Assembly: GCA_964408485.1 (NCBI GenBank)
Contig: CAYOZJ010000001.1
Span: 92,366-156,365, forward strand
Direction of reading: 5' to 3'
Origin: an uncultured Gammaproteobacteria bacterium
GTDB lineage: Bacteria > Patescibacteriota > Microgenomatia > Levybacterales > UBA12049
Length of the DNA stretch: 64,000 bases
Shown: in pieces, positions 3,072 through 62,816 of the stretch
Position numbering within the stretch: position 1 is the first letter of the stretch
How the letters are laid out: each line of letters opens with the position of its first letter
Translations under genes and position numbers: made by a program
Notes under the pieces: model-generated
The model's input: the letters and a program-made list of their open reading frames with translations, nothing else
Databases searched by the model: none
Told to the model about the DNA's origin: nothing

Positions 3072-3854
3072 ATGAAACGATATTTTTTTCTTTTATTTTT
3101 ACTTCTTACAATACTATTGTTGCCTAAGGTAAGTTGGGCTGCAACAACTCCAACCCCGATTAAATCGGGGCCGACCCCAACAGGTAATCAAATCGAACAA
3201 CAAATTAATAATTTAAAGGATAGAATTGCCAGTCGTGTTGCGCAATTAAATCTTGTTGAAAAAAAAGGATTTATCGGTAGCGTTACAGATATTTCTGAAA
3301 CGCAAATTACTATTCAGGATTTACAAGGTAACACACGAATTATTGACGTTGACGAGCTAACAAAATTCTCTTCTCCCTCTGCAAAATCCAGCTTTGGCAT
3401 TTCTGACATTGCGAAAGGTACAACAATTGGCGTAATTGGACTATACAATAAAGATTCCAGGCGCCTCTTGGCACGTTTTGTTGACGTTGTCCAATTACCA
3501 CAAATTTTCTCAGGAGGAATAGTAGGTATAGATAAAGATAACTTTACCTTTACTATGGCAACGGAAAAAAGCCAATCAGTAAATATCGACATTGAAAGTA
3601 TTACTAAAACAACAAGCTATACCAAAACAGATGGGTCTGTTAAAGCAGGATTCTCAAAATTAGCAATAGGACAACGAGTCTTGGTTATTGGTTTTCCAGA
3701 TGCGCGAAATAAAAACCTTACTATTGCATCACGTGTTATTGTTTTTCCTGACCTACCGGTAAATCCAAAAATTCCTCTTATTAATCCAACAGATCTTGCA
3801 CCAATTACGCCGTCCACAGGGAGCGGCAAAACACTGACCCCCATTAAAAAGTGA
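3072..3854 (+). CDS. Secreted hypothetical protein (signal peptide). Contains the PIKSGP palindrome insert.
   Basis: Signal peptide MKRYFFLLFLLLTILLLPKVSWA. Contains TPTPIKSGPTP encoded by the palindrome CCCCGATTAAATCGGGG at 3154-3170. Confidence 0.5.
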   Translation: MKRYFFLLFLLLTILLLPKVSWAATTPTPIKSGPTPTGNQIEQQINNLKDRIASRVAQLNLVEKKGFIGSVTDISETQITIQDLQGNTRIIDVDELTKFSSPSAKSSFGISDIAKGTTIGVIGLYNKDSRRLLARFVDVVQLPQIFSGGIVGIDKDNFTFTMATEKSQSVNIDIESITKTTSYTKTDGSVKAGFSKLAIGQRVLVIGFPDARNKNLTIASRVIVFPDLPVNPKIPLINPTDLAPITPSTGSGKTLTPIKK

Positions 3855-6232: not shown

Positions 6233-6284
6233 ATTTACCTCTTGACCCGATTTACTCCGATTAAATCGGAGTTAAAATCGGGGC

Positions 6285-6313
6285 TTGACTTTAGTTAAGT
6301 AAAGTACTATACT
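6285..6313 (+). promoter_or_regulatory. Sigma70-like promoter, TTGACT-17-TATACT
   Basis: Near-consensus -35/-10 with 17-nt spacer, 23 nt upstream of the ATG at 6337. Confidence 0.5.
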
Positions 6314-6336: not shown

Positions 6337-6657
6337 ATGGATTATTTGCATACGAAAGACACAAAAGAATTATTCAAAGCAATCTTACTTTTAAAAACAG
6401 AGGAAGATTGCAGACGATTCTTGCGAGACTTGCTCACCGAAGCAGAAATAAAAGAGTTTGCTAATCGGTGGAAAGTTGTTCGGATGTTGGATATTAAAAC
6501 GCCATACGAGACAATAACCAGCCAAACAGGCATGAGCAGCACAACAATTGCGCGAATTGCCAAATGGCTACACGGTAAAGTTGGAGGATATACATTTATG
6601 TTAAAACGAATAAAAAATGAAAAAGCAAGTCATCACGCTCCCCTAGCAGCGGCGTGA
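6337..6657 (+). CDS. TrpR-like YerC/YecD family DNA-binding protein
   Basis: 106 aa. A conserved YerC/YecD core (FLRDLLTEAEIKEFANRWKV...TGMSSTTIARIAKWL) with an HTH. Confidence 0.7.
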   Translation: MDYLHTKDTKELFKAILLLKTEEDCRRFLRDLLTEAEIKEFANRWKVVRMLDIKTPYETITSQTGMSSTTIARIAKWLHGKVGGYTFMLKRIKNEKASHHAPLAAA

Positions 6658-20196: not shown

Positions 20197-22725
20197 TTAT
20201 TGGTCAGGAGTTGTTGTATTGTTAGTTTCATTTGTAAGATCGTACGCATTCTCCATACGCTTTGCAATGTGTTGTAAATTAAAAGGCAAACTATATAACC
20301 CTAAGTCATATATATCTTCAGCAGAAAGTTCTTGATTAGTTTCTAGCTTGGCATGTAAGCTCTGCACCCTCTTAAGAGCCTCTTCCCTATTTCCAAAAAG
20401 CTGTTCTATTCTTTCCTGCGGAAATGCATTCGGCACCTGTTGATTGAGATTGGTAAAATAATTGCCAATTTGCGGGACTGCATCGGGATACTGCTGATAC
20501 ATACTACTAACTTGTCCAAAAAGGTTTCTCACCAACCTTGCTTGATGAGTCGGATGAACAGTTGCTTCGTACACGTATGAAAAAAGTGTATTTGGCCCAT
20601 GATACGAAGACTCTAACTGATTGAAAGAAAATTGCGAAAGAGTATTATCTTCTCTCACCCGCGCAATAAAGGAATTTGGAATCATATTATACAATATACT
20701 AGAACGTGAGTCTGTTTCTCCAATAGTAAATAAACCTAATTCTCCACGATTGTCTGTTACTTCAAAATGCTCAATATCTTCGTTAAGAGAAATTGGACTC
20801 ATAAGCGACGGGTCAACAACAGCAAAGTCGCCCTCTCGGCGTGGTAACGTACCTTCAGAGACAGGTGTTTTAGTTGGATCATCCAATTGTTCAAAAAGAC
20901 TTGTAAGTGTTATGGATTTGGGTAATTCCACAACTTCTGGCATTGCTGCAGTAGCTTGCTCAACAACTTCTTGCTCGACAACTGGAGCTTCGACTTGCAT
21001 CGGAAGTATTATTTCCTCTCCCTTAAGCATTTCCATGACCTTTTTAATATCAACACTATGTCCTAAAAATTCAATTTGGCGAATTTGCTCGGGAGTAAGA
21101 GTAAGTGGATCTATTTTCAGAACTTCTTCCAATGCTTTTCTTCTTTCAGGCCATACAGCGAGAGTCTGCTCGGTGTTAACTGTATAAGGAAAAAGTTCGT
21201 CTACAACTACCTCTTCATTAATGGTTGGCTCAACGGAATCAATAGCAACAAGCCTATTAGGAGTAGATACATCATGAAGTATTGCTTGTTCTTTTTGAAT
21301 AAATGGAACAAGTTGTTCTTCAATAAAATCCTGCTCCTCTGAAGAGAGATTTTCTTGCAACCCCGCATATTCTCTATGAAACTGTTGTTGAAAGGCAATC
21401 TGTATTACCTGACCCTCTTCATTATTATTTCCGATCAGTTGTGGTTCTATAACTTGCAAATCATGAAATGCAAATTGCCTTAATGAGTCTGGTGTTTGAG
21501 CTTCAAAAAATTCTTGAAGAAGCTGTGGATTAACCTCATGAACACGCAGAATTGTCTCCCCTATTTGTTGATAAAGCATTGCTTGCTCTTCGGGGCTTTC
21601 TGCAGATGCAGCAGCTAAAGCAAATGTACCAGAGTCATTGTCGGTTAATGCTTCTGCATTTTTAAAACGCTTATTTTCTTCTAAAACACGGGCTGGTGGA
21701 AAAACTTCCTCATTGGGGAAGAGATGTTCTCCATCAGGTTCAAGAACAAAGAAATTTTTACGAAGCTGTAATTCTTTTAGTTGCTCAAATGTAAGATTTT
21801 GCGCAAAATCCACAGGAACACCTTTTTCTAGCCAATAAGGATTGCCAGGTTGTGCAGGTGGTTGAAGACGTGCTAAAACATCTTTCACATTATGAGGCTT
21901 CCCTTTTTCTAATGCCTGCGGTCTTTCAGCTTGTTCTCTATGCTTCTGCAACCATTCCCATGCAGTGCTCTCGTCTTCATTCAATGTTGCGTCAGGTGTG
22001 ACTTGCTCTAATGCTTGCTGATCATGTAATGCTCGGGTTTTTGCAACAAGGAGAGCACCCAGTGCATGCTGCGCTTTCTCACCTGCAACTTGCAAAAGAG
22101 GAGCAACTCTTTGAAGATTATCAATAATTTTTTCAGGATCTCCATTACTTTCTCGACTTGCTGCCTCGACCAGAGTATCAATAAGCTTTTTTGTATCATT
22201 TCCGCTTTTGTCTGTAGGACTTAGGTAAGTAGCATAGAAAATAAGCATACGAGCAAAATCATTGTCGATACTTTCCTGAGATAAGGGACGTTCGCCTCCT
22301 ATAGCCTGCAAGTCATTATTTATAGTGGCTATAAGAGAAATTACTTTTGGGTCCTGTAATTCTTGTTGTGTTTGGTCTATTGACCCATGGAGACCAACAG
22401 CCTGCAATATATGTATAACATCTATGTCTGTTTGCTTAGCAACCCACTGACGAATTCCAGGTTTTTCTCTATCTCCTGCAATCCATGTAATCAATTCTTG
22501 CCCAAAATTTAACTTTTTCCCCTGGGATTGTTGTTCTTGCCAATACCCATCCCTATCTGAAAGGGATCCTCCCTGAAAAGCAGCAAGTACATCTGCAGGA
22601 ATGTCTTGACCAAGTGGATGAGATCCTTCTTGCGTAAGAATTCTCTTACTCACGTTTACAGAGTATCGAGAAAGTAAAAGTCGACGTTTCTTCTCCTCTT
22701 CAGGAGTACGTCTTCGTTCAATCAT
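20197..22725 (-). CDS. Large acidic hypothetical protein, 842 aa, no TM and no recognisable domain
   Basis: Uninterrupted 2.5-kb ORF rich in E/Q/L. Co-oriented between ctpA and murB with two small P/G-rich ORFs upstream. Confidence 0.55.
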   Translation of the reverse strand: MIERRRTPEEEKKRRLLLSRYSVNVSKRILTQEGSHPLGQDIPADVLAAFQGGSLSDRDGYWQEQQSQGKKLNFGQELITWIAGDREKPGIRQWVAKQTDIDVIHILQAVGLHGSIDQTQQELQDPKVISLIATINNDLQAIGGERPLSQESIDNDFARMLIFYATYLSPTDKSGNDTKKLIDTLVEAASRESNGDPEKIIDNLQRVAPLLQVAGEKAQHALGALLVAKTRALHDQQALEQVTPDATLNEDESTAWEWLQKHREQAERPQALEKGKPHNVKDVLARLQPPAQPGNPYWLEKGVPVDFAQNLTFEQLKELQLRKNFFVLEPDGEHLFPNEEVFPPARVLEENKRFKNAEALTDNDSGTFALAAASAESPEEQAMLYQQIGETILRVHEVNPQLLQEFFEAQTPDSLRQFAFHDLQVIEPQLIGNNNEEGQVIQIAFQQQFHREYAGLQENLSSEEQDFIEEQLVPFIQKEQAILHDVSTPNRLVAIDSVEPTINEEVVVDELFPYTVNTEQTLAVWPERRKALEEVLKIDPLTLTPEQIRQIEFLGHSVDIKKVMEMLKGEEIILPMQVEAPVVEQEVVEQATAAMPEVVELPKSITLTSLFEQLDDPTKTPVSEGTLPRREGDFAVVDPSLMSPISLNEDIEHFEVTDNRGELGLFTIGETDSRSSILYNMIPNSFIARVREDNTLSQFSFNQLESSYHGPNTLFSYVYEATVHPTHQARLVRNLFGQVSSMYQQYPDAVPQIGNYFTNLNQQVPNAFPQERIEQLFGNREEALKRVQSLHAKLETNQELSAEDIYDLGLYSLPFNLQHIAKRMENAYDLTNETNNTTTPDQ

Positions 22726-26796: not shown

Positions 26797-27942
26797 TTAG
26801 CTCCCTATTTTAAATTCAACTACGTCGCCGTCTTTCATTATGTAATCTTTTCCTTCGAGCCGTGCTTTTCCTTTTTCTCTAGACCCCTTCCAACCATTTT
26901 GATCAACAAAGTCCTCATACCCAACAACTTCTGCTTTAATAAATTTCTTTATAAAATCTGTATGAATCTCCCCTGCTGCTTCTGGCGCACTACTTCCTTT
27001 TCGTATTGTCCAAGCCCGCACTTCTTTTTCCCCACAAGTCAAAAAACTTATTAGACCTAACTGCGTATAGGCTTTTTGTATCAAACGCTCTAAGCCCGAC
27101 GCGCTAAGCCCTAAGCCGGCAAGGTATTCTTTTTGCTCATCATCCGAAAGACCTGCTAATTCAGATTCAATTTGCGCACAGATGACAACAATATTGTCTA
27201 CCCCAATGTCATTCCCGCGCAGGCGGGAATCTAGGGAACTGGATCCCTGATCGGAGTCAGGGATGACAGCAGAAAGTAATGAACGATACTCTCTCGTTAC
27301 TTTTTCAATTCCTTCAGGATTATATTGTGATTCACTCACGTTTAGGACAACTAACTCAGGCTTTGAGCTTAGCAGGAATAGCTCTCTTATTGCTTCCCTT
27401 TCTTCCTCGCTAAGATCCATTGCCCTCACCGGTACCCCTTGTTCTAATAGCTTTTGGACTTTCTCATGATTTGCGTTTTTTACTTTGCGATTTACATTCT
27501 GCAGAGTCTGCAGGTCAGCAAGCATAAGCTCAGTATTAATGACTTCATAGTCAGATTTTGGATCTACAGCACCTTCCTTAATAACATTCTCGTCTTCAAA
27601 CGCTCTGACAACATGCGCAACAACCGACACTTCTTTAATGTGCCCTAGGAATTTATTGCCAAGTCCTGCTCCCTCTGATGCACCTTTCACAAGTCCTGCA
27701 ATATCGACAAATTCAACAGTTGCAGGCTTGAGTGGTGGCAATTCACTCATCTTTTCTTCTTCTTTGGTAATCTCAGCAAGCTTGTTAAGTCGCGGATCTG
27801 GCACGGCAACAATCCCTACATTTGGCTCAATAGTTGCAAAAGGATAATTTGCAGCTAACGCTTGCTGCTTTTTAAGAAGCGCATTAAACAATGTAGATTT
27901 TCCTACATTCGGAAGACCGACAATCCCAACACTCAAGTTCAT
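26797..27942 (-). CDS. ychF: Ribosome-binding ATPase YchF (Obg-family GTPase)
   Basis: G1 motif GIVGLPNVGKSTLFNAL. TGS domain C-terminus (DFIKKFIKAEVVGYEDF...VVEFK). Carries an in-frame 60-bp repeat insert. Confidence 0.92.
   Translation of the reverse strand: MNLSVGIVGLPNVGKSTLFNALLKKQQALAANYPFATIEPNVGIVAVPDPRLNKLAEITKEEEKMSELPPLKPATVEFVDIAGLVKGASEGAGLGNKFLGHIKEVSVVAHVVRAFEDENVIKEGAVDPKSDYEVINTELMLADLQTLQNVNRKVKNANHEKVQKLLEQGVPVRAMDLSEEEREAIRELFLLSSKPELVVLNVSESQYNPEGIEKVTREYRSLLSAVIPDSDQGSSSLDSRLRGNDIGVDNIVVICAQIESELAGLSDDEQKEYLAGLGLSASGLERLIQKAYTQLGLISFLTCGEKEVRAWTIRKGSSAPEAAGEIHTDFIKKFIKAEVVGYEDFVDQNGWKGSREKGKARLEGKDYIMKDGDVVEFKIGS
27208..27267. repeat. In-frame 60-bp hairpin-rich insert within ychF (TIR GTCATTCCC...GGGATGAC)
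   Basis: Encodes DSDQGSSSLDSRLRGNDIGV on the minus strand. Contains hairpins CCCGCGCAGGCGGG and CCCTGATCGGAGTCAGGG. The termini are inverted repeats related to the other GATGAC-ended elements. Confidence 0.7.
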
Positions 27943-28733: not shown

Positions 28734-30560
28734 CTAGCGCACAGGGCTTCCTGGATTAAACGAGATTGTTGGAGTAGCTGTTGGTTTTGTTGTCGGTGTT
28801 GGCGTAATAGTAGGAATAGATGTAGGAATGGGAGTTATGGTAGCAGTAACAGTTGAAACAGATGTTGGTACAATAACTGTTGGTGTTGCAGAAAGTGTTT
28901 GAGTAATTTGTGCAACAGCTGCACTAGCAGAAACATTAGAAAGCCTCGTTATAGAATATGGAGGTAATTGTAGAAGAGTTGGTGGCACTTGACCTGAAAT
29001 ACTTGTTGTCAAAAATGAACTATCTCCTGTTGAAAGAGCTGAGGGAGTTGCGCTTAATTGATTATAAAATTGGGCATTCAGATTTGGAGACAATGAAATT
29101 GTATACGCTGTTGATGAAAGATTGAAAATAATTGCTTGCTTGTATTGTCCACCAGAGAAAAGATACCCAACAAGAGATGGAAAACTGCCAGCGCGTCCAG
29201 AAAGCTGTGGATTGGATGAAAACTGAAGAGAAGCAAATGTTTTTTGTCCATACATCCCTCTCATTACTTCAGTCAAAACAAGTCCTGCAGAACTTAATCC
29301 ATCTTGAATAGTTGTTGGAGCATTTGTACAACCGCTTCGATGGGTATATGCGTCTGTTGTCTTAAAAATGAGTGAAAAATTTGCATTTGCCCATAACGTA
29401 TAGTTAGTAGCTAAATTAATTCTACTGTCAGAAAGCATGCTTGTCAGGAATATTCCATCAAAAAGGCCACTTCCCCAACTTCCATCAATAGCATTATACG
29501 GATCGGAGTAGTTGTATTCTGTAAACCAAAACTTTCCATTTCCCCATGTTTGTAATTGATTCAAAAATGGTTTAATTCCATTTTTCTCATAAAGATATGC
29601 TTGACTCAATAAATCTTTTACACCCTGATCTGTCTGAAGATGTGCATATTCTGATTGCTGCTTCTGGCAATATGTTGTGCCTGTTACTGCCATATTCGGC
29701 GCGGGATATGGATGAATCGTGAGATAATAATTTTTTCCTTTGAGTGCTGTAATAAGCTGGCTATTCCATGTACTATTCGTCCCAAAAACTGCATTTACTC
29801 CCACCTGAACTGTACCATCCCATGCATGAATTCCGTCAATCCATCGCTTGGCAATATTTCCATACGAAGTACCACTTGGAAAAATGCATGTTTCATCTGG
29901 ACTAGAGTTTGGTTGATTTTTATATACCTCATTCCCAAGTTCTACATATTTTACCGATATTCCCATTTGTCTTGCAGCTTTCAGGAAATTTAGTTGATCG
30001 GTTAACACACTTTGCCATTTGCTATCCCATACTTCATTGCATTTCAGATTTATTCCATTGGTTGGTGTAATAAGATTTAATACAAAGATAGGAGTCCCAT
30101 GTGTTTTATCAACCATAGTCTTAAGATCGGTGAGTGTTTGGGTGTAATGAGTGAGATAATATGGATACCCATTTACATACGTCGAACTATATTTTGGTCC
30201 ATGAAGATTCCAGAAAGTTCCATCGTGCCAATTATAATAATTAGCCACTCCCGATGGAAAACGAAAAACAGTTGGTAAGAGATTTCCCAGATTTTGTCCA
30301 AGTGTCCCACCAAGACGTGAGGGATCAATACCATCTATATCTACTCCTGCAAAAGGACCATGAAGCGAAGATTGACTACCAATGCTTACAGAAATTGTAC
30401 CCGTTGATGCTCCTAGTACATTTGACTTAGTCAATATAAGCACTCCAATTAGTACTATGGCCATAAGAAGTGAAAAAGAAATACCAATATATTTAAGATT
30501 AAAAAATGATTTATGCTTCTTATGCCTTACAACCTTTTTAACAACTTTCTTTTTCTTCAC
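28734..30560 (-). CDS. Membrane-anchored exported putative glycoside hydrolase (clan GH-A-like TIM barrel) with a Thr/Pro-rich C-terminal tail
   Basis: Basic N-terminus plus TM helix. VELGNEVY resembles the NEP acid/base motif of clan A glycosidases. C-terminal TPT/IPT repeats. Confidence 0.4.
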   Translation of the reverse strand: MKKKKVVKKVVRHKKHKSFFNLKYIGISFSLLMAIVLIGVLILTKSNVLGASTGTISVSIGSQSSLHGPFAGVDIDGIDPSRLGGTLGQNLGNLLPTVFRFPSGVANYYNWHDGTFWNLHGPKYSSTYVNGYPYYLTHYTQTLTDLKTMVDKTHGTPIFVLNLITPTNGINLKCNEVWDSKWQSVLTDQLNFLKAARQMGISVKYVELGNEVYKNQPNSSPDETCIFPSGTSYGNIAKRWIDGIHAWDGTVQVGVNAVFGTNSTWNSQLITALKGKNYYLTIHPYPAPNMAVTGTTYCQKQQSEYAHLQTDQGVKDLLSQAYLYEKNGIKPFLNQLQTWGNGKFWFTEYNYSDPYNAIDGSWGSGLFDGIFLTSMLSDSRINLATNYTLWANANFSLIFKTTDAYTHRSGCTNAPTTIQDGLSSAGLVLTEVMRGMYGQKTFASLQFSSNPQLSGRAGSFPSLVGYLFSGGQYKQAIIFNLSSTAYTISLSPNLNAQFYNQLSATPSALSTGDSSFLTTSISGQVPPTLLQLPPYSITRLSNVSASAAVAQITQTLSATPTVIVPTSVSTVTATITPIPTSIPTITPTPTTKPTATPTISFNPGSPVR

Positions 30561-34000: not shown

Positions 34001-34873
34001 ATGAAGAAAGTTTGGCTCACTGTCATTGCAGTTTTGCTTCTTCTTATTGCAGGACTTGTTTTTTACAAACTCCATATCCAACCCAAACCTGCAGACCTTT
34101 CCAAAACACCAGAGACTGCTCTTCTTGCACAAGTTGCCCTTTGGTATCCATCTGCCGGCTGGTCTTCTCCAAAGATAGATAAACAAACAACACTATACGG
34201 CTCCTTTACTGGAGAAAGTATGCAGGCAACGATAAAAAGCGATAAAGCATTTATGGAGCATTACGAAAATGCAGATACGCTCAAGCAAATGGGATTTTTG
34301 CCTGATACCAATCTTTCTGCAGATGGACCAGGGTCGTCTAGTTGGGGATATTCCAATATAACAAGTAACTCCAAACAATTAATTATTTTTTCGTACCGCA
34401 CCAAGCCAACCAATACTAATCCCAACGAACCTGCTCAATTTACCTGCCCTTGTGATAAAACAATTTCTGTTTTTGTAAGTCTCTCCTCTACCCCAACACA
34501 AGCTACTCACGTTAGCACAACGCCAACCCTGAGTTCCTCCGGTTCAACCGGAGTTCAATCGGGGCCAACACTTGCCAATCCTGCATCGGTCAACTGCACC
34601 AACAAAGGCGGAACCTTACTTATTAAAAAGCGCGGAGACGGCGGTGAATATGGACTATGTGATTTTGGTGATAATATGCAATGCGAAGAATGGGCTCTTT
34701 TCCGAGGAGATTGCCCAGTTGGAGGCAGAAAAACAACAGGATTTGATACGATCGATCAAAAATACTGTGCGTGGCTTGGAGGATCTACCTATGCTGTAGA
34801 AAATGCTACATGCCAATTACCCAACGGCCACAATTGCCTAGATACAGATTTGTATAACGGGACGTGTCAGTAA
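34001..34873 (+). CDS. Exported protein with tandem C-terminal DUF333 (putative hemolysin-like) domains
   Basis: NPASVNCTNKGGTLLIKKRGDGGEYGLCDFGDNMQCEEWALFRGDC matches the DUF333 consensus (NPASVYC..GG......G..Y..C.F.DG..CEEWA..RGEC). A second degenerate copy follows. Confidence 0.65.
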   Translation: MKKVWLTVIAVLLLLIAGLVFYKLHIQPKPADLSKTPETALLAQVALWYPSAGWSSPKIDKQTTLYGSFTGESMQATIKSDKAFMEHYENADTLKQMGFLPDTNLSADGPGSSSWGYSNITSNSKQLIIFSYRTKPTNTNPNEPAQFTCPCDKTISVFVSLSSTPTQATHVSTTPTLSSSGSTGVQSGPTLANPASVNCTNKGGTLLIKKRGDGGEYGLCDFGDNMQCEEWALFRGDCPVGGRKTTGFDTIDQKYCAWLGGSTYAVENATCQLPNGHNCLDTDLYNGTCQ

Positions 34874-44033: not shown

Positions 44034-44495
44034 TCAATTTTGACTTTGCGTCATTCCATTAGGAAGAGTTTGTGATTGGGATTGACTATCACTATCTTGA
44101 TTTTGTGACTGACTGCCTTGTGAATTAGAACTACTTTGTGATTGATAATACCAAACAGTCGGTTGAGTTGTATATGTTGTTGTAGTTGTCGTTGTTGTCG
44201 TATTTACTCCACCTTTTGTTGTGCTTCCTTTTTGAAAGGACGGTGTTGGCCCCGATTTAATCGGGGTTGGTGTTGGAGTTGATGCAACAAATCCATATGG
44301 TGTTGGTGTTGGGGAAATTGTTGGAAAAGATGAAGGCTGTGTTACTACTGGCTTTTTATTAAAAAATAATCCTCGAATAACAAAAAATAGGATAAATATA
44401 ACAACGATTACTGCCACAATTCCTAAGATAAGTCGTCCGCGTGATCCTTCTTCTTCCATGACCGGTAGTATAGCACTTCCGAGGCTAATTGACAA
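44034..44495 (-). CDS. Membrane-anchored Thr/Ser/Gln-rich low-complexity protein. Contains the PIKSGP palindrome insert.
   Basis: TM helix plus a TPTPTPIKSGPTPS segment encoded by CCCCGATTTAATCGGGG (44250-44266). Poly-Thr and SQSQ repeats. Confidence 0.4.
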   Translation of the reverse strand: MSISLGSAILPVMEEEGSRGRLILGIVAVIVVIFILFFVIRGLFFNKKPVVTQPSSFPTISPTPTPYGFVASTPTPTPIKSGPTPSFQKGSTTKGGVNTTTTTTTTTYTTQPTVWYYQSQSSSNSQGSQSQNQDSDSQSQSQTLPNGMTQSQN

Positions 44496-49849: not shown

Positions 49850-50155
49850 ATATATTGTTCGAATGCAGTGAGAACTAAAACTTCTCGCTTTGCTCGAAGA
49901 ATAAATATTTTACTTTTGTACAGATTGGCTTTTCTCCAACTGAACCGGAGTCGGGGTTGGAGTAATTGAAGATAAAACAGTCAGATATTTTTGATTAAAA
50001 AGCATACCTGCATAAAACGCAACTCCTAAGAAAGCCAAAACAAGAAGAAGGGCTAGCATTTTAGAAAACGCAGTAACTTTGGTAAGTGATTTAGGAAGTT
50101 TGACCATACATCTACTTTCCTACAAAAACCAGAAAAAATCAAGTCGATTTCGTGC

Positions 50156-52728: not shown

Positions 52729-53316
52729 TTACCCTATTCCTCCTCCTTTATTTTCTGTTGCGCGCTGTGCTTTTAGCAAATTATCATCTTGTTGTTTTTT
52801 CTCTTCTTTTTTCTGCATATCTTGGAATTTTTCCTCCTGCTTATCTTGCTCTTTTTCGTTATTTTCAACGACAGTCTTTCTGTCTCGTCCTTCTGCTTTT
52901 GCTAAAAAGTCCTGATAATACTCTTGGTGAAGACTCCTAAGTTCTTGCTCGATTTTCTGAATCTTTTCTATATCCTCTGGCGACTTACTCCCAGGATCTG
53001 CAACCAATTGTTGACCTGCTTTTGTAAGCATTTGCGGAGCTTGACCTTGTCCTTGTTGCTTTTGCTTACCACCAGCTGCATCCGGACTAAATAAGTCTCC
53101 TCCTTGTAGCGTATTTGCCCCGATTGAATCGGGGTTAAATGATCCATTTTGGGGCTGCTGCTTAGGAGGAGTAAAACTACCACTTATCCCGCCGCTTCCT
53201 TTTACTTGACCTGCTACAGATTTAGTAAAGTCAGCAATTGTCCCACCAATTGCCTGTTTTGTATTTGCTGTTAAATCCTCTAATGCTTCACCAAATCCAT
53301 TTGATCCATCTGACAT
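52729..53316 (-). CDS. Gln/Lys/Glu-rich low-complexity hypothetical protein. Contains a palindrome variant.
   Basis: Encodes NPDSIGAN from CCCCGATTCAATCGGGG (53118-53134). Confidence 0.35.
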   Translation of the reverse strand: MSDGSNGFGEALEDLTANTKQAIGGTIADFTKSVAGQVKGSGGISGSFTPPKQQPQNGSFNPDSIGANTLQGGDLFSPDAAGGKQKQQGQGQAPQMLTKAGQQLVADPGSKSPEDIEKIQKIEQELRSLHQEYYQDFLAKAEGRDRKTVVENNEKEQDKQEEKFQDMQKKEEKKQQDDNLLKAQRATENKGGGIG

Positions 53317-58956: not shown

Positions 58957-60453
58957 TTACTTCTTTAATTCTACCACCACACGAAGCTGTTTGCCAGTTA
59001 TCTCCCGTACTACTTTTTCTAGAATCTCAACTATTTGTGCTTCTCCAAGTTTTTCTTTATGAAATGCGTATGCTGTCTGGAGTACCAACTGAGTATCGGT
59101 AAGAGATTTTACCGTGCAACCTCTGAGTACTCCTGCAACAGAATGATTGTAAGGCTTTACCTTATAAATAAGATTCTCAAGCAAAACGCTCGTATCTTTA
59201 ATATCTTTTGGTAAATCTGTTTGAGTACTTGTTGACTCCTCCTTTTTGGGAGCAACCGGCTTTACACCGCTTAATACTTGCTTTACTTTAAGATTCTGCT
59301 CTTTTTTAAGCATGTCTTTCATGGTATTCCGGTCATTGTGAGGAGCTAAAGGCGACGCGGCAATCTCTTTATCCGTATTAGATTGCTTCGTTTCACTCGC
59401 AATGACAGCGCCTTGCTGACACCACACAACCACAGCTAATTCTAAAGGAAGGGATGGAATAGGGGCATATTTGGTACCTTGATACGCCTCCTCAAATAAG
59501 GGAATGAGTATTTGCATATCTGAAAGAGAAATTTTTATATCGCCCGTGCTATTTGTATTTCCTATTTCCCTTAGTAGTCTCTTATGCAAGTCTGACAAAA
59601 TTTGATAGAGGAAGAATTTTACATCTGTTCCTTCTTCAACAACTTGACTGACTACCTGAAGCGTAGCCTTTGCATCTTTTTTAAGAAAGTTTTCCATAAA
59701 ATCATGAAGATGAGGAAGAATATTCGTTGTTTTAAATGAAGTTTCAAAAACCTCTTTCGTAATCTTTTTTCCATTTGATAATGCAACAACTTCTTCTAAA
59801 ATTTTGGTTGTATCTCTGTATCCCCCATCTCCCATTTCTGCTATTAACCCAAGCGCTTCATCATCTATATCTATTTTTTCCTCTTTTACAATTCTTTTTA
59901 ATGCATGAGTTAGCTCTTCTTTGCTTGCTCTATTTAGAGAAATATGAAAACATCTGGAGATAATGGTTGCGGGGACTTTTTGCGGCTCTGTTGTTGCAAA
60001 AATAAAAACCACATGTGCTGGGGGCTCTTCAATTGTCTTAAGAAGTGCATTAAATGCTTCGTTGGTAAGCATATGCACTTCATCGATAATATAAACTTTT
60101 TTCCGACTAGCGCTTGGTGCTAGATTAACCCGTTCGCGAAGCTCTCTAATTTCATCGATGCCTCTATTGGATGCACCGTCAATTTCCAAAACATCAATGT
60201 TTGATCCATTGGTAATACTTACACATTGGTCACACTCATTACATGGTTCTATACCGTTACGCTTAGAACTTGTACAGTTGAGGACTTTGGCAATGATTCT
60301 GGCAGTTGATGTCTTCCCAAGTCCCTTGGGACCGGTAAATAGAAAGGCATGAGGGATTTCTTTTTGAGACAAAACTGCTGTTAGGGTCTCTCTGAGCTTT
60401 GGACTATCTAACTCTGCAATTGTTTGGGGACGGTATTTTCTGTAGTAAACCAT
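58957..60453 (-). CDS. dnaX: DNA polymerase III subunit gamma/tau, carrying an in-frame repeat insert
   Basis: AAA+ Walker A GPKGLGKTS, zinc module CNECDQC, SRC/sensor motifs. Insert VIASETKQSNTDKEIAASPLAPHNDRN between domain III and the C-terminus. Confidence 0.92.
   Translation of the reverse strand: MVYYRKYRPQTIAELDSPKLRETLTAVLSQKEIPHAFLFTGPKGLGKTSTARIIAKVLNCTSSKRNGIEPCNECDQCVSITNGSNIDVLEIDGASNRGIDEIRELRERVNLAPSASRKKVYIIDEVHMLTNEAFNALLKTIEEPPAHVVFIFATTEPQKVPATIISRCFHISLNRASKEELTHALKRIVKEEKIDIDDEALGLIAEMGDGGYRDTTKILEEVVALSNGKKITKEVFETSFKTTNILPHLHDFMENFLKKDAKATLQVVSQVVEEGTDVKFFLYQILSDLHKRLLREIGNTNSTGDIKISLSDMQILIPLFEEAYQGTKYAPIPSLPLELAVVVWCQQGAVIASETKQSNTDKEIAASPLAPHNDRNTMKDMLKKEQNLKVKQVLSGVKPVAPKKEESTSTQTDLPKDIKDTSVLLENLIYKVKPYNHSVAGVLRGCTVKSLTDTQLVLQTAYAFHKEKLGEAQIVEILEKVVREITGKQLRVVVELKK
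59332..59406. repeat. 75-bp palindromic element in-frame within dnaX
   Basis: TIR GTCATTGTGAG/CTCGCAATGAC. About 90% identical to the nadE and nadD copies. Confidence 0.85.
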
Positions 60454-60682
60454 AGTAATTTGTCATTCTGGGTTTTTCATTTTGTCATCCCGGACTTGAT
60501 CCGGGATCCACTCCTTTTTCTGGATTCCTGCTTTCGCAGGAATGACGCTTAATGAGATCCTTCACTCGACTCAGTATTTGCTTCACCGAAACGGCACACT
60601 TCGTTCAGGATGACAGAGACGAAGCATGATTTAGGATACTACAAAAGGAGGGGTATTAAAAGATTGCAAAGTGTATCGAAAA
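60454..60682. repeat. Cluster of at least four hairpin/MITE-like repeat units upstream of dnaX
   Basis: TTGTCATTCTGGG; TTGTCATCCCGGACTTGATCCGGGAT hairpin; ATTCCTGCTTTCGCAGGAATGAC hairpin; GAGATCCTTC...TTCAGGATGACAGAGACGAAG hairpin. Confidence 0.65.
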
Positions 60683-62695: not shown

Positions 62696-62816
62696 AAGTA
62701 ATTTTTCCCTTTTTCTCTCCTTCTCCTTTCAGGAGAAGGTTGGGATGAGGTTCGCTGATTTTCTGCTCCTCAACCTCACCCTGGCCCTCTCCTCGCAGGA
62801 GAGGGAAATAATATGG
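62696..62816. repeat. Paired intergenic hairpin repeats
   Basis: CTCCTTCTCCTTTCAGGAGAAGG and CCCTCTCCTCGCAGGAGAGGG, related to the CGCAGG-loop hairpins in ychF and at 60520. Confidence 0.5.

Follow-up and report, generated by a model that had tools for sequence, protein, structure and literature searches.

The DNA analysed here is a 64,000-nt stretch of contig CAYOZJ010000001.1 (the window, base composition ~38% GC). Its genes are compact and of ordinary chromosomal type and encode DnaB, HisRS, RF, MurB, SSB, S6/S18, YchF, CysRS, NadE, RecR, DnaX and PRPP synthetase. By its protein matches, the window is assigned to the Patescibacteria, near the Levybacteria (Microgenomatia). Dispersed over this stretch is a 17-bp palindrome with the structure 8+1+8, CCCCGATT-N-AATCGGGG, whose central base is variable. 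In total, seven copies are present at five loci, which corresponds to a density of about one per 9 kb. This palindrome is very probably a non-autonomous mobile DNA element that consists solely of a central base between two inverted termini of 8 bp and is moved in trans.

Three perfect copies reside in three unrelated coding sequences (Table 1), as a first-pass annotation made from the letters of the window had noticed. The motif typed there, CCCCGATT(T)AAATCGGGG, is an 18-mer that has no match in the window even when two mismatches are allowed. The central base is A in the copy at 3154, T on the plus strand (A on the gene strand) in that at 44250, and G on the plus strand (C on the gene strand) in that at 53118. 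According to the base composition, ~3.5e-6 copies are expected in the window. At window level, the count against expectation for which the annotation had asked gives three perfect copies, while 100 dinucleotide-preserving shuffles yielded 0. Outside the palindrome, the half-sites CCCCGATT and AATCGGGG occur at chance-level frequency, and nearly all half-sites of the window are located within it. The copy at 44250 has as its host a small membrane protein that contains a Pro-Thr linker and belongs to no Pfam family. The flanks of the copy at 53118 are decayed (TTTG / TTAA).

The remaining two loci contain 38-nt pairs. A tandem had been postulated for the intergenic region at 6257-6284. The copy is real; the tandem is in fact a nested pair, whose inner unit CTCCGATTAAATCGGAG is a symmetric variant of the 17-mer. 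Similarly, at 34545-34565 the element is present, not as the proposed partial copy but within a nested, partly decayed pair in a protein linker. Its inner perfect palindrome CTCCGGTTCAACCGGAG spans positions 34537-34553, the translation reads LSSSGSTGVQSG, and CCAA direct repeats bracket the pair at 34523-34526 and 34565-34568. The nested nature of this pair is suggested by its 38-nt length and by the CCAA repeats. Among 32 DUF333 orthologues, the window protein has the longest linker at this site. A second supposed partial copy at 49940-49960 is a Pro-Thr linker instead (CCA ACC CCG ACT CCG GTT on the minus strand).

Table 1. Copies of the 17-bp palindrome in the window and the direct repeats beside them.
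Feature	Position	Location	Remarks
Perfect copy CCCCGATTAAATCGGGG	3154..3170	DUF5666 secreted-protein gene 3072-3854 (+)	read T-PIKSG-P
Left target-site duplication of the 3154 copy, CCAA	3150..3153		
Right target-site duplication of the 3154 copy, CCGA	3171..3174		3/4 match to left
Nested pair, 38 nt = 17 + 21	6246..6283	intergenic	outer CCCGATT..AATCGGGG, inner CTCCGATTAAATCGGAG at 6255-6271
Left direct repeat CTTGA of the 6246-6283 pair	6241..6245		
Right direct repeat CTTGA of the 6246-6283 pair	6284..6288		its TTGA begins the -35 box
Nested, partly decayed pair, 38 nt	34527..34564	DUF333 protein linker, gene 34001-34873 (+)	outer CCCTGAGTT..CAATCGGGG
Perfect copy, CCCCGATTAAATCGGGG on gene strand	44250..44266	gene 44034-44495 (-)	read T-PIKSG-P
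Left target-site duplication TTGG (gene strand CCAA)	44246..44249		perfect direct repeat with 44267-44270
Right target-site duplication TTGG	44267..44270		
Perfect copy, CCCCGATTCAATCGGGG on gene strand	53118..53134	uncharacterised-protein gene 52729-53316 (-)	other frame, N-PDSIG-A

Further copies were collected by one 17-mer scan in each of three public collections. At least 120 genome stretches, at least 120 metagenome stretches and 22 viral stretches were obtained, the first two numbers being lower bounds; loci of this set are designated by L numbers. Among the matches listed, 48 of 271 unique copies, pooled with those of the window, are bracketed by a perfect 4-nt direct repeat (~1 per 128 expected). 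In the genome set (genome_contigs) together with the window, this applies to 17 of 127 copies, while random re-pairing of left with right flanks gives an expectation of 1.0. The independent metagenome set gives 29 of 128 among the matches listed. As a control, unrelated perfect 8-1-8 palindromes were inspected in the same 1.84 Mb, and at most 2 among ~230 are flanked by repeats. The tetranucleotide is not constant among copies, not even among those of a single metagenome-assembled genome (MAG; CAAA, CCAA and TTGA in CAYQAW01). Since the flanking repeats differ between copies, they represent a duplicated target and not a part of the element.

The targets show a preference. TTGA/TCAA accounts for 22 of 46, followed by CTGA, CCAA, CAAA, TAAA and TTAA (2/46). 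Position 4 is A in 45 of the 46, and the looser consensus is Y-Y-R-A. The central base of the repeat-flanked copies is A/T in 34 and C/G in 12 cases. It shows no significant link to the orientation of TTGA targets (in TTGA orientation A 10, T 8, C 4, G 0). In the window, the CCAA target of the insertions in Pro-Thr linkers comes from CCA-ACN. A preference for flanking TPT codons had been suspected, and CCAA indeed fits the Pro-Thr codons CCA-ACN; the real preference concerns four nucleotides, most commonly TTGA.

Comparison of filled and empty sites reveals the size of a single event. Two orthologous coding regions, L109 and L119, are ~80% identical, and L109 has exactly 21 additional bases, CCCCGATTTAATCGGGG plus a second TTGA. 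The insertion point is the central TTGA of an older copy, which is present in both regions and differs between them by one symmetric double change. Four RNase P RNA genes identified with Rfam (L095, L044, L204 and L139) were aligned. That of L095 contains a 21-nt insertion (17-mer + 4) that is lacking in L044, L204 and L139, and that of L139 contains a second 21-nt insertion at a different position. Because an RNase P RNA gene has no reading frame, the 21-nt size reflects the mechanism and not reading-frame selection alone.

Protein alignments provide a similar picture. Among 120 DUF5666 orthologues, PIKSGP is present only in the window protein and in P0045; two more have decayed versions. The closest orthologue (L265, 79% identity) is empty at this site and reads ACT CCG ACA CCA ACA. 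P0045 from L264 shares 54% identity with the window protein, and its 17-mer is the same, framed by a perfect duplication of CCAA: TCT CCA A/CC CCG ATT AAA TCG GGG CCA A/CG (a slash closes each CCAA). Such an identical 17-mer in a protein of only 54% identity would imply either a recent independent insertion or a strong constraint at the DNA level. For the protein encoded at 52729-53316, all 20 of 20 orthologues lack a block of 6-7 residues precisely at the palindrome in the alignment.

All coding copies had been claimed to encode PIKSGP. Two of three do so, those at 3154 and 44250 (TPTPIKSGPTP); the third encodes NPDSIGAN. The codons are CC-CCG-ATT-AAA-TCG-GGG (TPIKSGP) at the former two and C-CCC-GAT-TCA-ATC-GGG (PDSIG) at 53118. 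A peptide motif (PIKSGP) shared by exported proteins, or a mere product of codon usage in Pro/Thr-rich linkers, might account for the identity of TPTPIKSGPTP in two Pro-Thr linkers that follow a signal peptide or a transmembrane helix. This view has next to no chance of being correct and was refuted by the analyses of frames and codons. PIKSG is expected 0.02 times in the 17,920 codons of the window and is observed twice. Given the peptide, the exact codon string has p = 6e-4, as the codons CCG (12%), TCG (7%) and GGG (15%) are rare. This means that chance under the prevailing codon usage, which the annotation had named as the case that would overturn its proposal, fails as an explanation. In addition, the third window copy is in another frame, and copies are also found in intergenic regions and RNA genes. 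About 20 of the 48 repeat-flanked copies are located within open reading frames (ORFs) of at least 150 codons and use three frames (PIKSG/PIQSG/PIESG, PDSIG/PDLIG and PRLNRG/PRFNRG), with central bases that avoid stop codons. The proposal that a DNA element was inserted, as opposed to protein homology, is thereby upheld on four counts: the frame differences, the orthologues without the segment, the target duplications, and the 17+4 nt that separate filled from empty sites.

The annotation had also considered a restriction or methylation site, an uptake signal or a recombinase site. With none of these would one expect four duplicated nucleotides at the flanks or insertions of 21 nt. A motif that drive or selection had enriched throughout the genome, be it for DNA uptake or for restriction/methylation, would agree with a strict, over-represented palindrome, and Patescibacteria encode competence machinery. 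It is nevertheless highly improbable. Only ~7 copies are present per 64 kb, i.e. ~1 per 9 kb and not ~1 per kb, and half-sites scarcely occur outside the palindrome, where they remain at chance level. Uptake sequences build up by substitution and not by 21-nt insertions with target duplication, and restriction sites are normally avoided, not enriched.

The element can insert into itself. Its centre TT-N-A serves as its own target, which results in the 38-nt nested pairs. In L099 and L109, the inner copy is flanked by TTTA or TTGA within the outer copy, and 38 nt lie between the outer duplications. This architecture is found twice in the window, in L099 and in L109. Promoters are frequent neighbours, too. 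Nine of 20 TTGA-flanked copies are located directly upstream of a sigma-70-type promoter, where the right-hand duplicate starts the -35 hexamer, often TTGACA. Insertion therefore regenerates the -35 box. In the window, the pair at 6246-6283 is followed by a promoter with -35 TTGACT (6285-6290), a 17-nt spacer and -10 TATACT (6308-6313), and the downstream gene is Trp-repressor-like (6337-6657). A terminator-like site is absent at this intergenic copy, and a terminator reading of the palindrome was rejected.

The 17-mer folds into a hairpin with a 7-bp stem and a 3-nt loop (-7.4 to -8.4 kcal/mol as DNA, -11 to -13.9 kcal/mol as RNA). Nested pairs reach about -16 (DNA) and -22 (RNA) kcal/mol; that at 6246-6283 forms one long hairpin (DNA -16.2, RNA -22.1 kcal/mol). 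As an Rfam scan of the window at gathering thresholds gives tRNA-Cys as sole match, the hairpin is not a known RNA family. Symmetric variants (TCCC..GGGA, CTCC..GGAG, GTCC..GGAC) amount to 18 cases vs 0 for the control arm. They could reflect selection for pairing or, equally, hairpin-templated correction of quasi-palindromes, an established process that yields symmetric changes.

Structural RNA genes contain the hairpin, too. Among the matches listed, ~14 exact copies of the 17-mer are located within 16S or 23S rRNA genes. The 23S rRNA gene of L215 (5452-9500) comprises seven family copies; three of them are clear insertions compared to the other 23S genes of the set, and one is nested. In 16S rRNA genes, the hairpin or its symmetric variants occupy the helix tips ~h6, h9, h17, h26 and h40 in different organisms, with four in one gene (loci L212, L076, L117, L165, L126 and L237). 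In L044, the 17-mer hairpin constitutes helix P3 of RNase P RNA. Published rRNA insertions of the candidate phyla radiation (CPR) are long intron-like sequences only (PMC11270868).

From such copies one might conclude that the palindrome is a functional site, maintained by selection and mostly arising in situ. It could be a DNA operator or a site of parS/NBS type that organises the chromosome, or a hairpin that binds protein or stabilizes RNA. The use as helix P3, the occurrence, with no duplications beside it, at the tips of several 23S and five or more different 16S helices, the symmetric double changes that keep the palindrome (including the orthologous copies of L109 and L119) and the many copies that adjoin promoters would all agree with it. 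We consider it unlikely, since it offers no account of the variable 4-nt duplications, of exact 21-nt insertions compared to empty sites or of nested copies. Furthermore, a candidate binding protein was not found, and the symmetric changes are explicable by quasi-palindrome correction. A functional site works better as an explanation for retention after insertion than for origin. The rRNA copies may be old insertions reshaped by structural constraint or may stem from a separate process.

For a mobile element, the following course can be proposed. An enzyme supplied in trans would insert the 17-mer at a 4-nt staggered cut. Gap repair would copy the four nucleotides, so that each event would add 17 + 4 = 21 bp. 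As 21 bp equal 7 codons, suitable combinations of frame and central base would be devoid of stops, and copies would persist in protein segments that tolerate them, e.g. Pro-Thr linkers after signal peptides. Promoter copies would survive because the right-hand duplicate restores the -35 TTGA(CA), and in structural RNA genes a stable hairpin would be placed at helix tips. Probably, a dimer of a DDE-type transposase would bind the palindrome and move it. The 4-nt stagger suggests such an enzyme acting in trans, and the candidate would be encoded outside the window.

Several points weigh against this course. A Pfam search of the ~80 window ORFs did not find a transposase, integrase, reverse transcriptase or HUH domain. 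A longer element with 17-mer termini was not found at 40-5000 bp spacing, with or without a matching 4-nt duplication, in 264 sequences (1.84 Mb); this search returned only 17-mer pairs and one chance match. Solitary half-sites are no commoner than chance in these 1.84 Mb of related loci. With no transposase in the window and no longer parent element in 1.84 Mb, we infer the mobilising enzyme in its entirety. To our knowledge, 17 bp is far below any substrate of DDE transposases. A perfect duplication accompanies only ~18% of all exact copies, and many copies without one are found in unrelated contexts (terminators, repeat families of Nitrospirota and Cloacimonadota). Finally, the copies in rRNA genes mostly have no flanking duplications and resemble helix-tip replacements or caps, so that they may have arisen by a second route or be under selection for the hairpin as such.

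Two other kinds of movement were weighed. A hairpin of single-stranded DNA (ssDNA) similar to repetitive extragenic palindromes (REPs) or REPINs could be moved by an HUH tyrosine transposase (RAYT or TnpA of IS200/IS605) and insert beside a short target such as TTGA. The 17-mer is a short GC-rich hairpin of REP size with ~-8 kcal/mol as DNA, and TTGA resembles the tetra- and pentanucleotide targets of IS200/IS605 (TTAC, TTGAT). REPs are also known inside ORFs (PMC3733652). This route is quite improbable because the HUH mechanism makes no duplication; here, a tetranucleotide is duplicated that varies by copy. Moreover, the flanks show no GTAG or CGTC tag but duplicated tetranucleotides that vary and are mostly TTGA, inverted doublets are absent, and a Y1 transposase domain (Y1_Tnp) was not found in the window ORFs.

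Alternatively, the 17-mers could be excision footprints of a larger transposon with CCCCGATT termini and a 4-bp duplication that left behind 8 bp per end and a joining base. A variable central base (A/T 34, C/G 12) would be expected of a repair junction, a 21-bp footprint restores the reading frame, and CCC..GGG termini with a TTNA-like target recall piggyBac and IS1380. We regard this as very unlikely. Neither a full-length element nor an above-chance number of solitary ends is present in the 1.84 Mb, nested copies would need repeated insertion and excision at one centre, and a full-length insert would kill the cell before it could be excised if it hit an essential gene or one for rRNA or RNase P RNA.

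About one third of the genome matches listed are labelled Patescibacteria. Among them, copies are found chiefly in Levy-, Davies-, Roizman-, Gottesman-, Beckwith-, Ames- and Woykebacteria, Microgenomates and Saccharibacteria. All repeat-flanked copies among the matches listed belong to MAGs of low GC content that are labelled as Patescibacteria or resemble them, and 0 to confidently non-Patescibacteria genomes. The genome_contigs MAGs L011, L020, L035, L075, L076, L085, L101 and L103 (TPA binchicken, co-assembly bins) are titled 'uncultured Gammaproteobacteria' and have 36-45% GC. A transporter of L011 is 56% identical to a window protein, and the 16S rRNA of L076 aligns with that of other loci of the set. 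Several of these low-GC MAGs are probably mislabelled. Three copies (L247, L262 and L263) were found on IMGVR_UViG_3300025015_000021, a 93.9-kb contig predicted to be viral or mobile. One of them has a TTGA duplication with a promoter, TTGATT-17-TATAAT, directly downstream. Neighbours of the copies on this contig are genes for an integrase-like protein, a replication initiator, a helicase, an HNH nuclease and a DNA methyltransferase. Such a predicted viral or mobile contig offers a possible route of horizontal spread.

Many exact matches in other phyla were rejected as members of this element. They are terminator stems with A-run/T-run inverted-repeat flanks, or cores of other families: ggatt..aatgaca in Nitrospirota and Methylomirabilis, cattgcgag..cgaagcaatc in Dehalococcoidia, and a family of Cloacimonadota. 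The window itself contains other repeat families. In the ychF gene (26797-27942, minus strand), two in-frame palindromic units of a different family, tGTCATTCCCGCGCAGGCGGGAATCTAG and CTGGATCCCTGATCGGAGTCAGGGATGACA, are located at 27208-27270. They add ~20 residues (VIPDSDQGSSSLDSRLRGND); YchF of L109 is devoid of them, and that of L169 carries another insertion there. A cluster of this YchF-type family, e.g. GTCATCCCGGACTTGATCCGGGATCC and CTGGATTCCTGCTTTCGCAGGAATGAC, occupies the intergenic region 60460-60620 upstream of dnaX (58957-60453), with the pattern 'GTCAT(T/C)CC-hairpin-GG(A/G)ATCC / GGATT..AATGAC'. In loci from Nitrospirota, Methylomirabilis and Nitrospinota, the outer flanks of the family at 60460-60620 enclose a CCCCGATTNAATCGGGG core. 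GC-rich hairpins at 62719-62739 and 62785-62805 within one intergenic stretch, CCTTCTCCTTTCAGGAGAAGG and CCCTCTCCTCGCAGGAGAGGG, may be another repeat family.

GC skew is below 0 in 14 of 16 4-kb bins of positions 1-64000 (cumulative -1.19), and past 14 kb the majority of genes is on the minus strand. Skew and strand bias of the genes suggest that the whole window is located inside one replichore. No Pfam family is matched at E<=1e-4 by two large ORFs, 20197-22725 (minus strand, 842 residues) and 28734-30560 (minus strand, 608 residues).

A wider claim can be made only tentatively, and we hold it to be possible at best: among DNA elements whose transposition duplicates the target site, the bare 17-bp palindrome could be the smallest, moved by an enzyme that treats both of its ends as a single dimeric site or through an RNA or ssDNA hairpin. 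It would have spread through the Patescibacteria, reshaped proteins by 7 residues per event and repeatedly supplied helix caps to rRNA and RNase P RNA of these organisms, whose ribosomes are reduced. If so, the size floor of a transposable unit with target duplication drops to 17 bp. An enzyme would exist that excises or integrates a substrate of less than two helical turns, possibly a compact tool for the insertion of short tags. The Patescibacteria, a large and almost uncultivated share of bacterial diversity, would have a mechanism to alter the linkers of secreted and membrane proteins in steps of 7 residues. Promoters would be hit and yet stay intact by regeneration of the -35 box. It would also be explained why one and the same hairpin closes helices of both rRNA and RNase P RNA, and strains could be followed in metagenomes by copies, which would mark recent insertions.

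In the literature searched, an earlier description of the palindrome was not found; its half-site strings were seen only as primers and guide RNAs. It is apparently an undescribed, very small mobile repeat, akin in kind to MITEs (miniature transposable elements with inverted repeats), REPs, the small dispersed repeats (SDRs) of cyanobacteria and the palindromic elements of Rickettsia (RPEs). SDR1-8 of heterocystous cyanobacteria are reportedly dispersed repeats of 21-27 nt with hairpin potential that contain no gene, nest within themselves, were judged mobile from comparisons of presence and absence, and are confined as families to the Nostocaceae. By this description, the palindrome is similar in that it adds 21 nt per event, is dispersed and self-nested (38-nt pairs) and has no associated gene. 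In contrast to SDRs, it is found in Patescibacteria and not in Nostocaceae, its sequence is unrelated, and it has a 4-nt duplication, a TTGA preference, in-frame insertions in ORFs and copies in rRNA and RNase P RNA genes. PiggyBac and IS1380 duplicate 4 bp at a TTNA-like site and have CCC...GGG ends that abut the duplication; piggyBac is strict for TTAA, and its ends are much longer than 8 bp. The palindrome likewise combines a 4-bp duplication with CCCC...GGGG termini, but is not specific for TTAA (TTAA 2/46, TTGA/TCAA 22/46 of its targets). For the uptake sequences DUS and USS, single non-palindromic units that are functional, at ~1 per kb, are expected, in contrast to 7 copies per 64 kb and half-sites at chance level.

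MITEs such as Correia/NEMIS, RUP and Nezha comprise 50-400 bp with terminal repeats of 15-30 bp, an internal core and a traceable parent insertion sequence (PMC3184786, PMC10969869). The palindrome shares with them terminal inverted repeats (its 8-bp arms are perfect), a target-site duplication compared to the empty site, the non-autonomous nature and an RNA hairpin. It differs by its 17 bp, its 8-bp repeats and its single central base without a core, and no parent was detected in the window or in 1.84 Mb. REPs and REPINs have a GTAG or CGTC tag and no target duplication, are mainly extragenic, often form inverted doublets and are linked to RAYTs (PMC3116915, PMC3733652). As GC-rich palindromes of 20-40 bp that are highly repeated, sometimes located in flexible ORF regions and of proposed mobile origin, they are similar to the palindrome, which in turn has no such tag, a target duplication, no inverted doublets and no RAYT in the window. 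RPEs are reportedly palindromic repeats that are likewise inserted in frame in many unrelated protein genes and, in addition, in RNA genes (Ogata et al., 2000, as cited in PMC3184786 and PMC3733652). They reportedly have ~100-150 bp, add 30-50 residues and are confined to Rickettsia, compared to 7 residues per event here. HIP1 of cyanobacteria (GCGATCGC) is also a strongly over-represented short palindrome of unknown function in coding and non-coding DNA (PMC5861425). However, HIP1 measures 8 bp, is found roughly once in each gene and spreads through nucleotide substitutions, not through insertion with duplication (PMC5861425). From SDRs, MITEs, REPs and RPEs, the palindrome is distinct in defining features of each.

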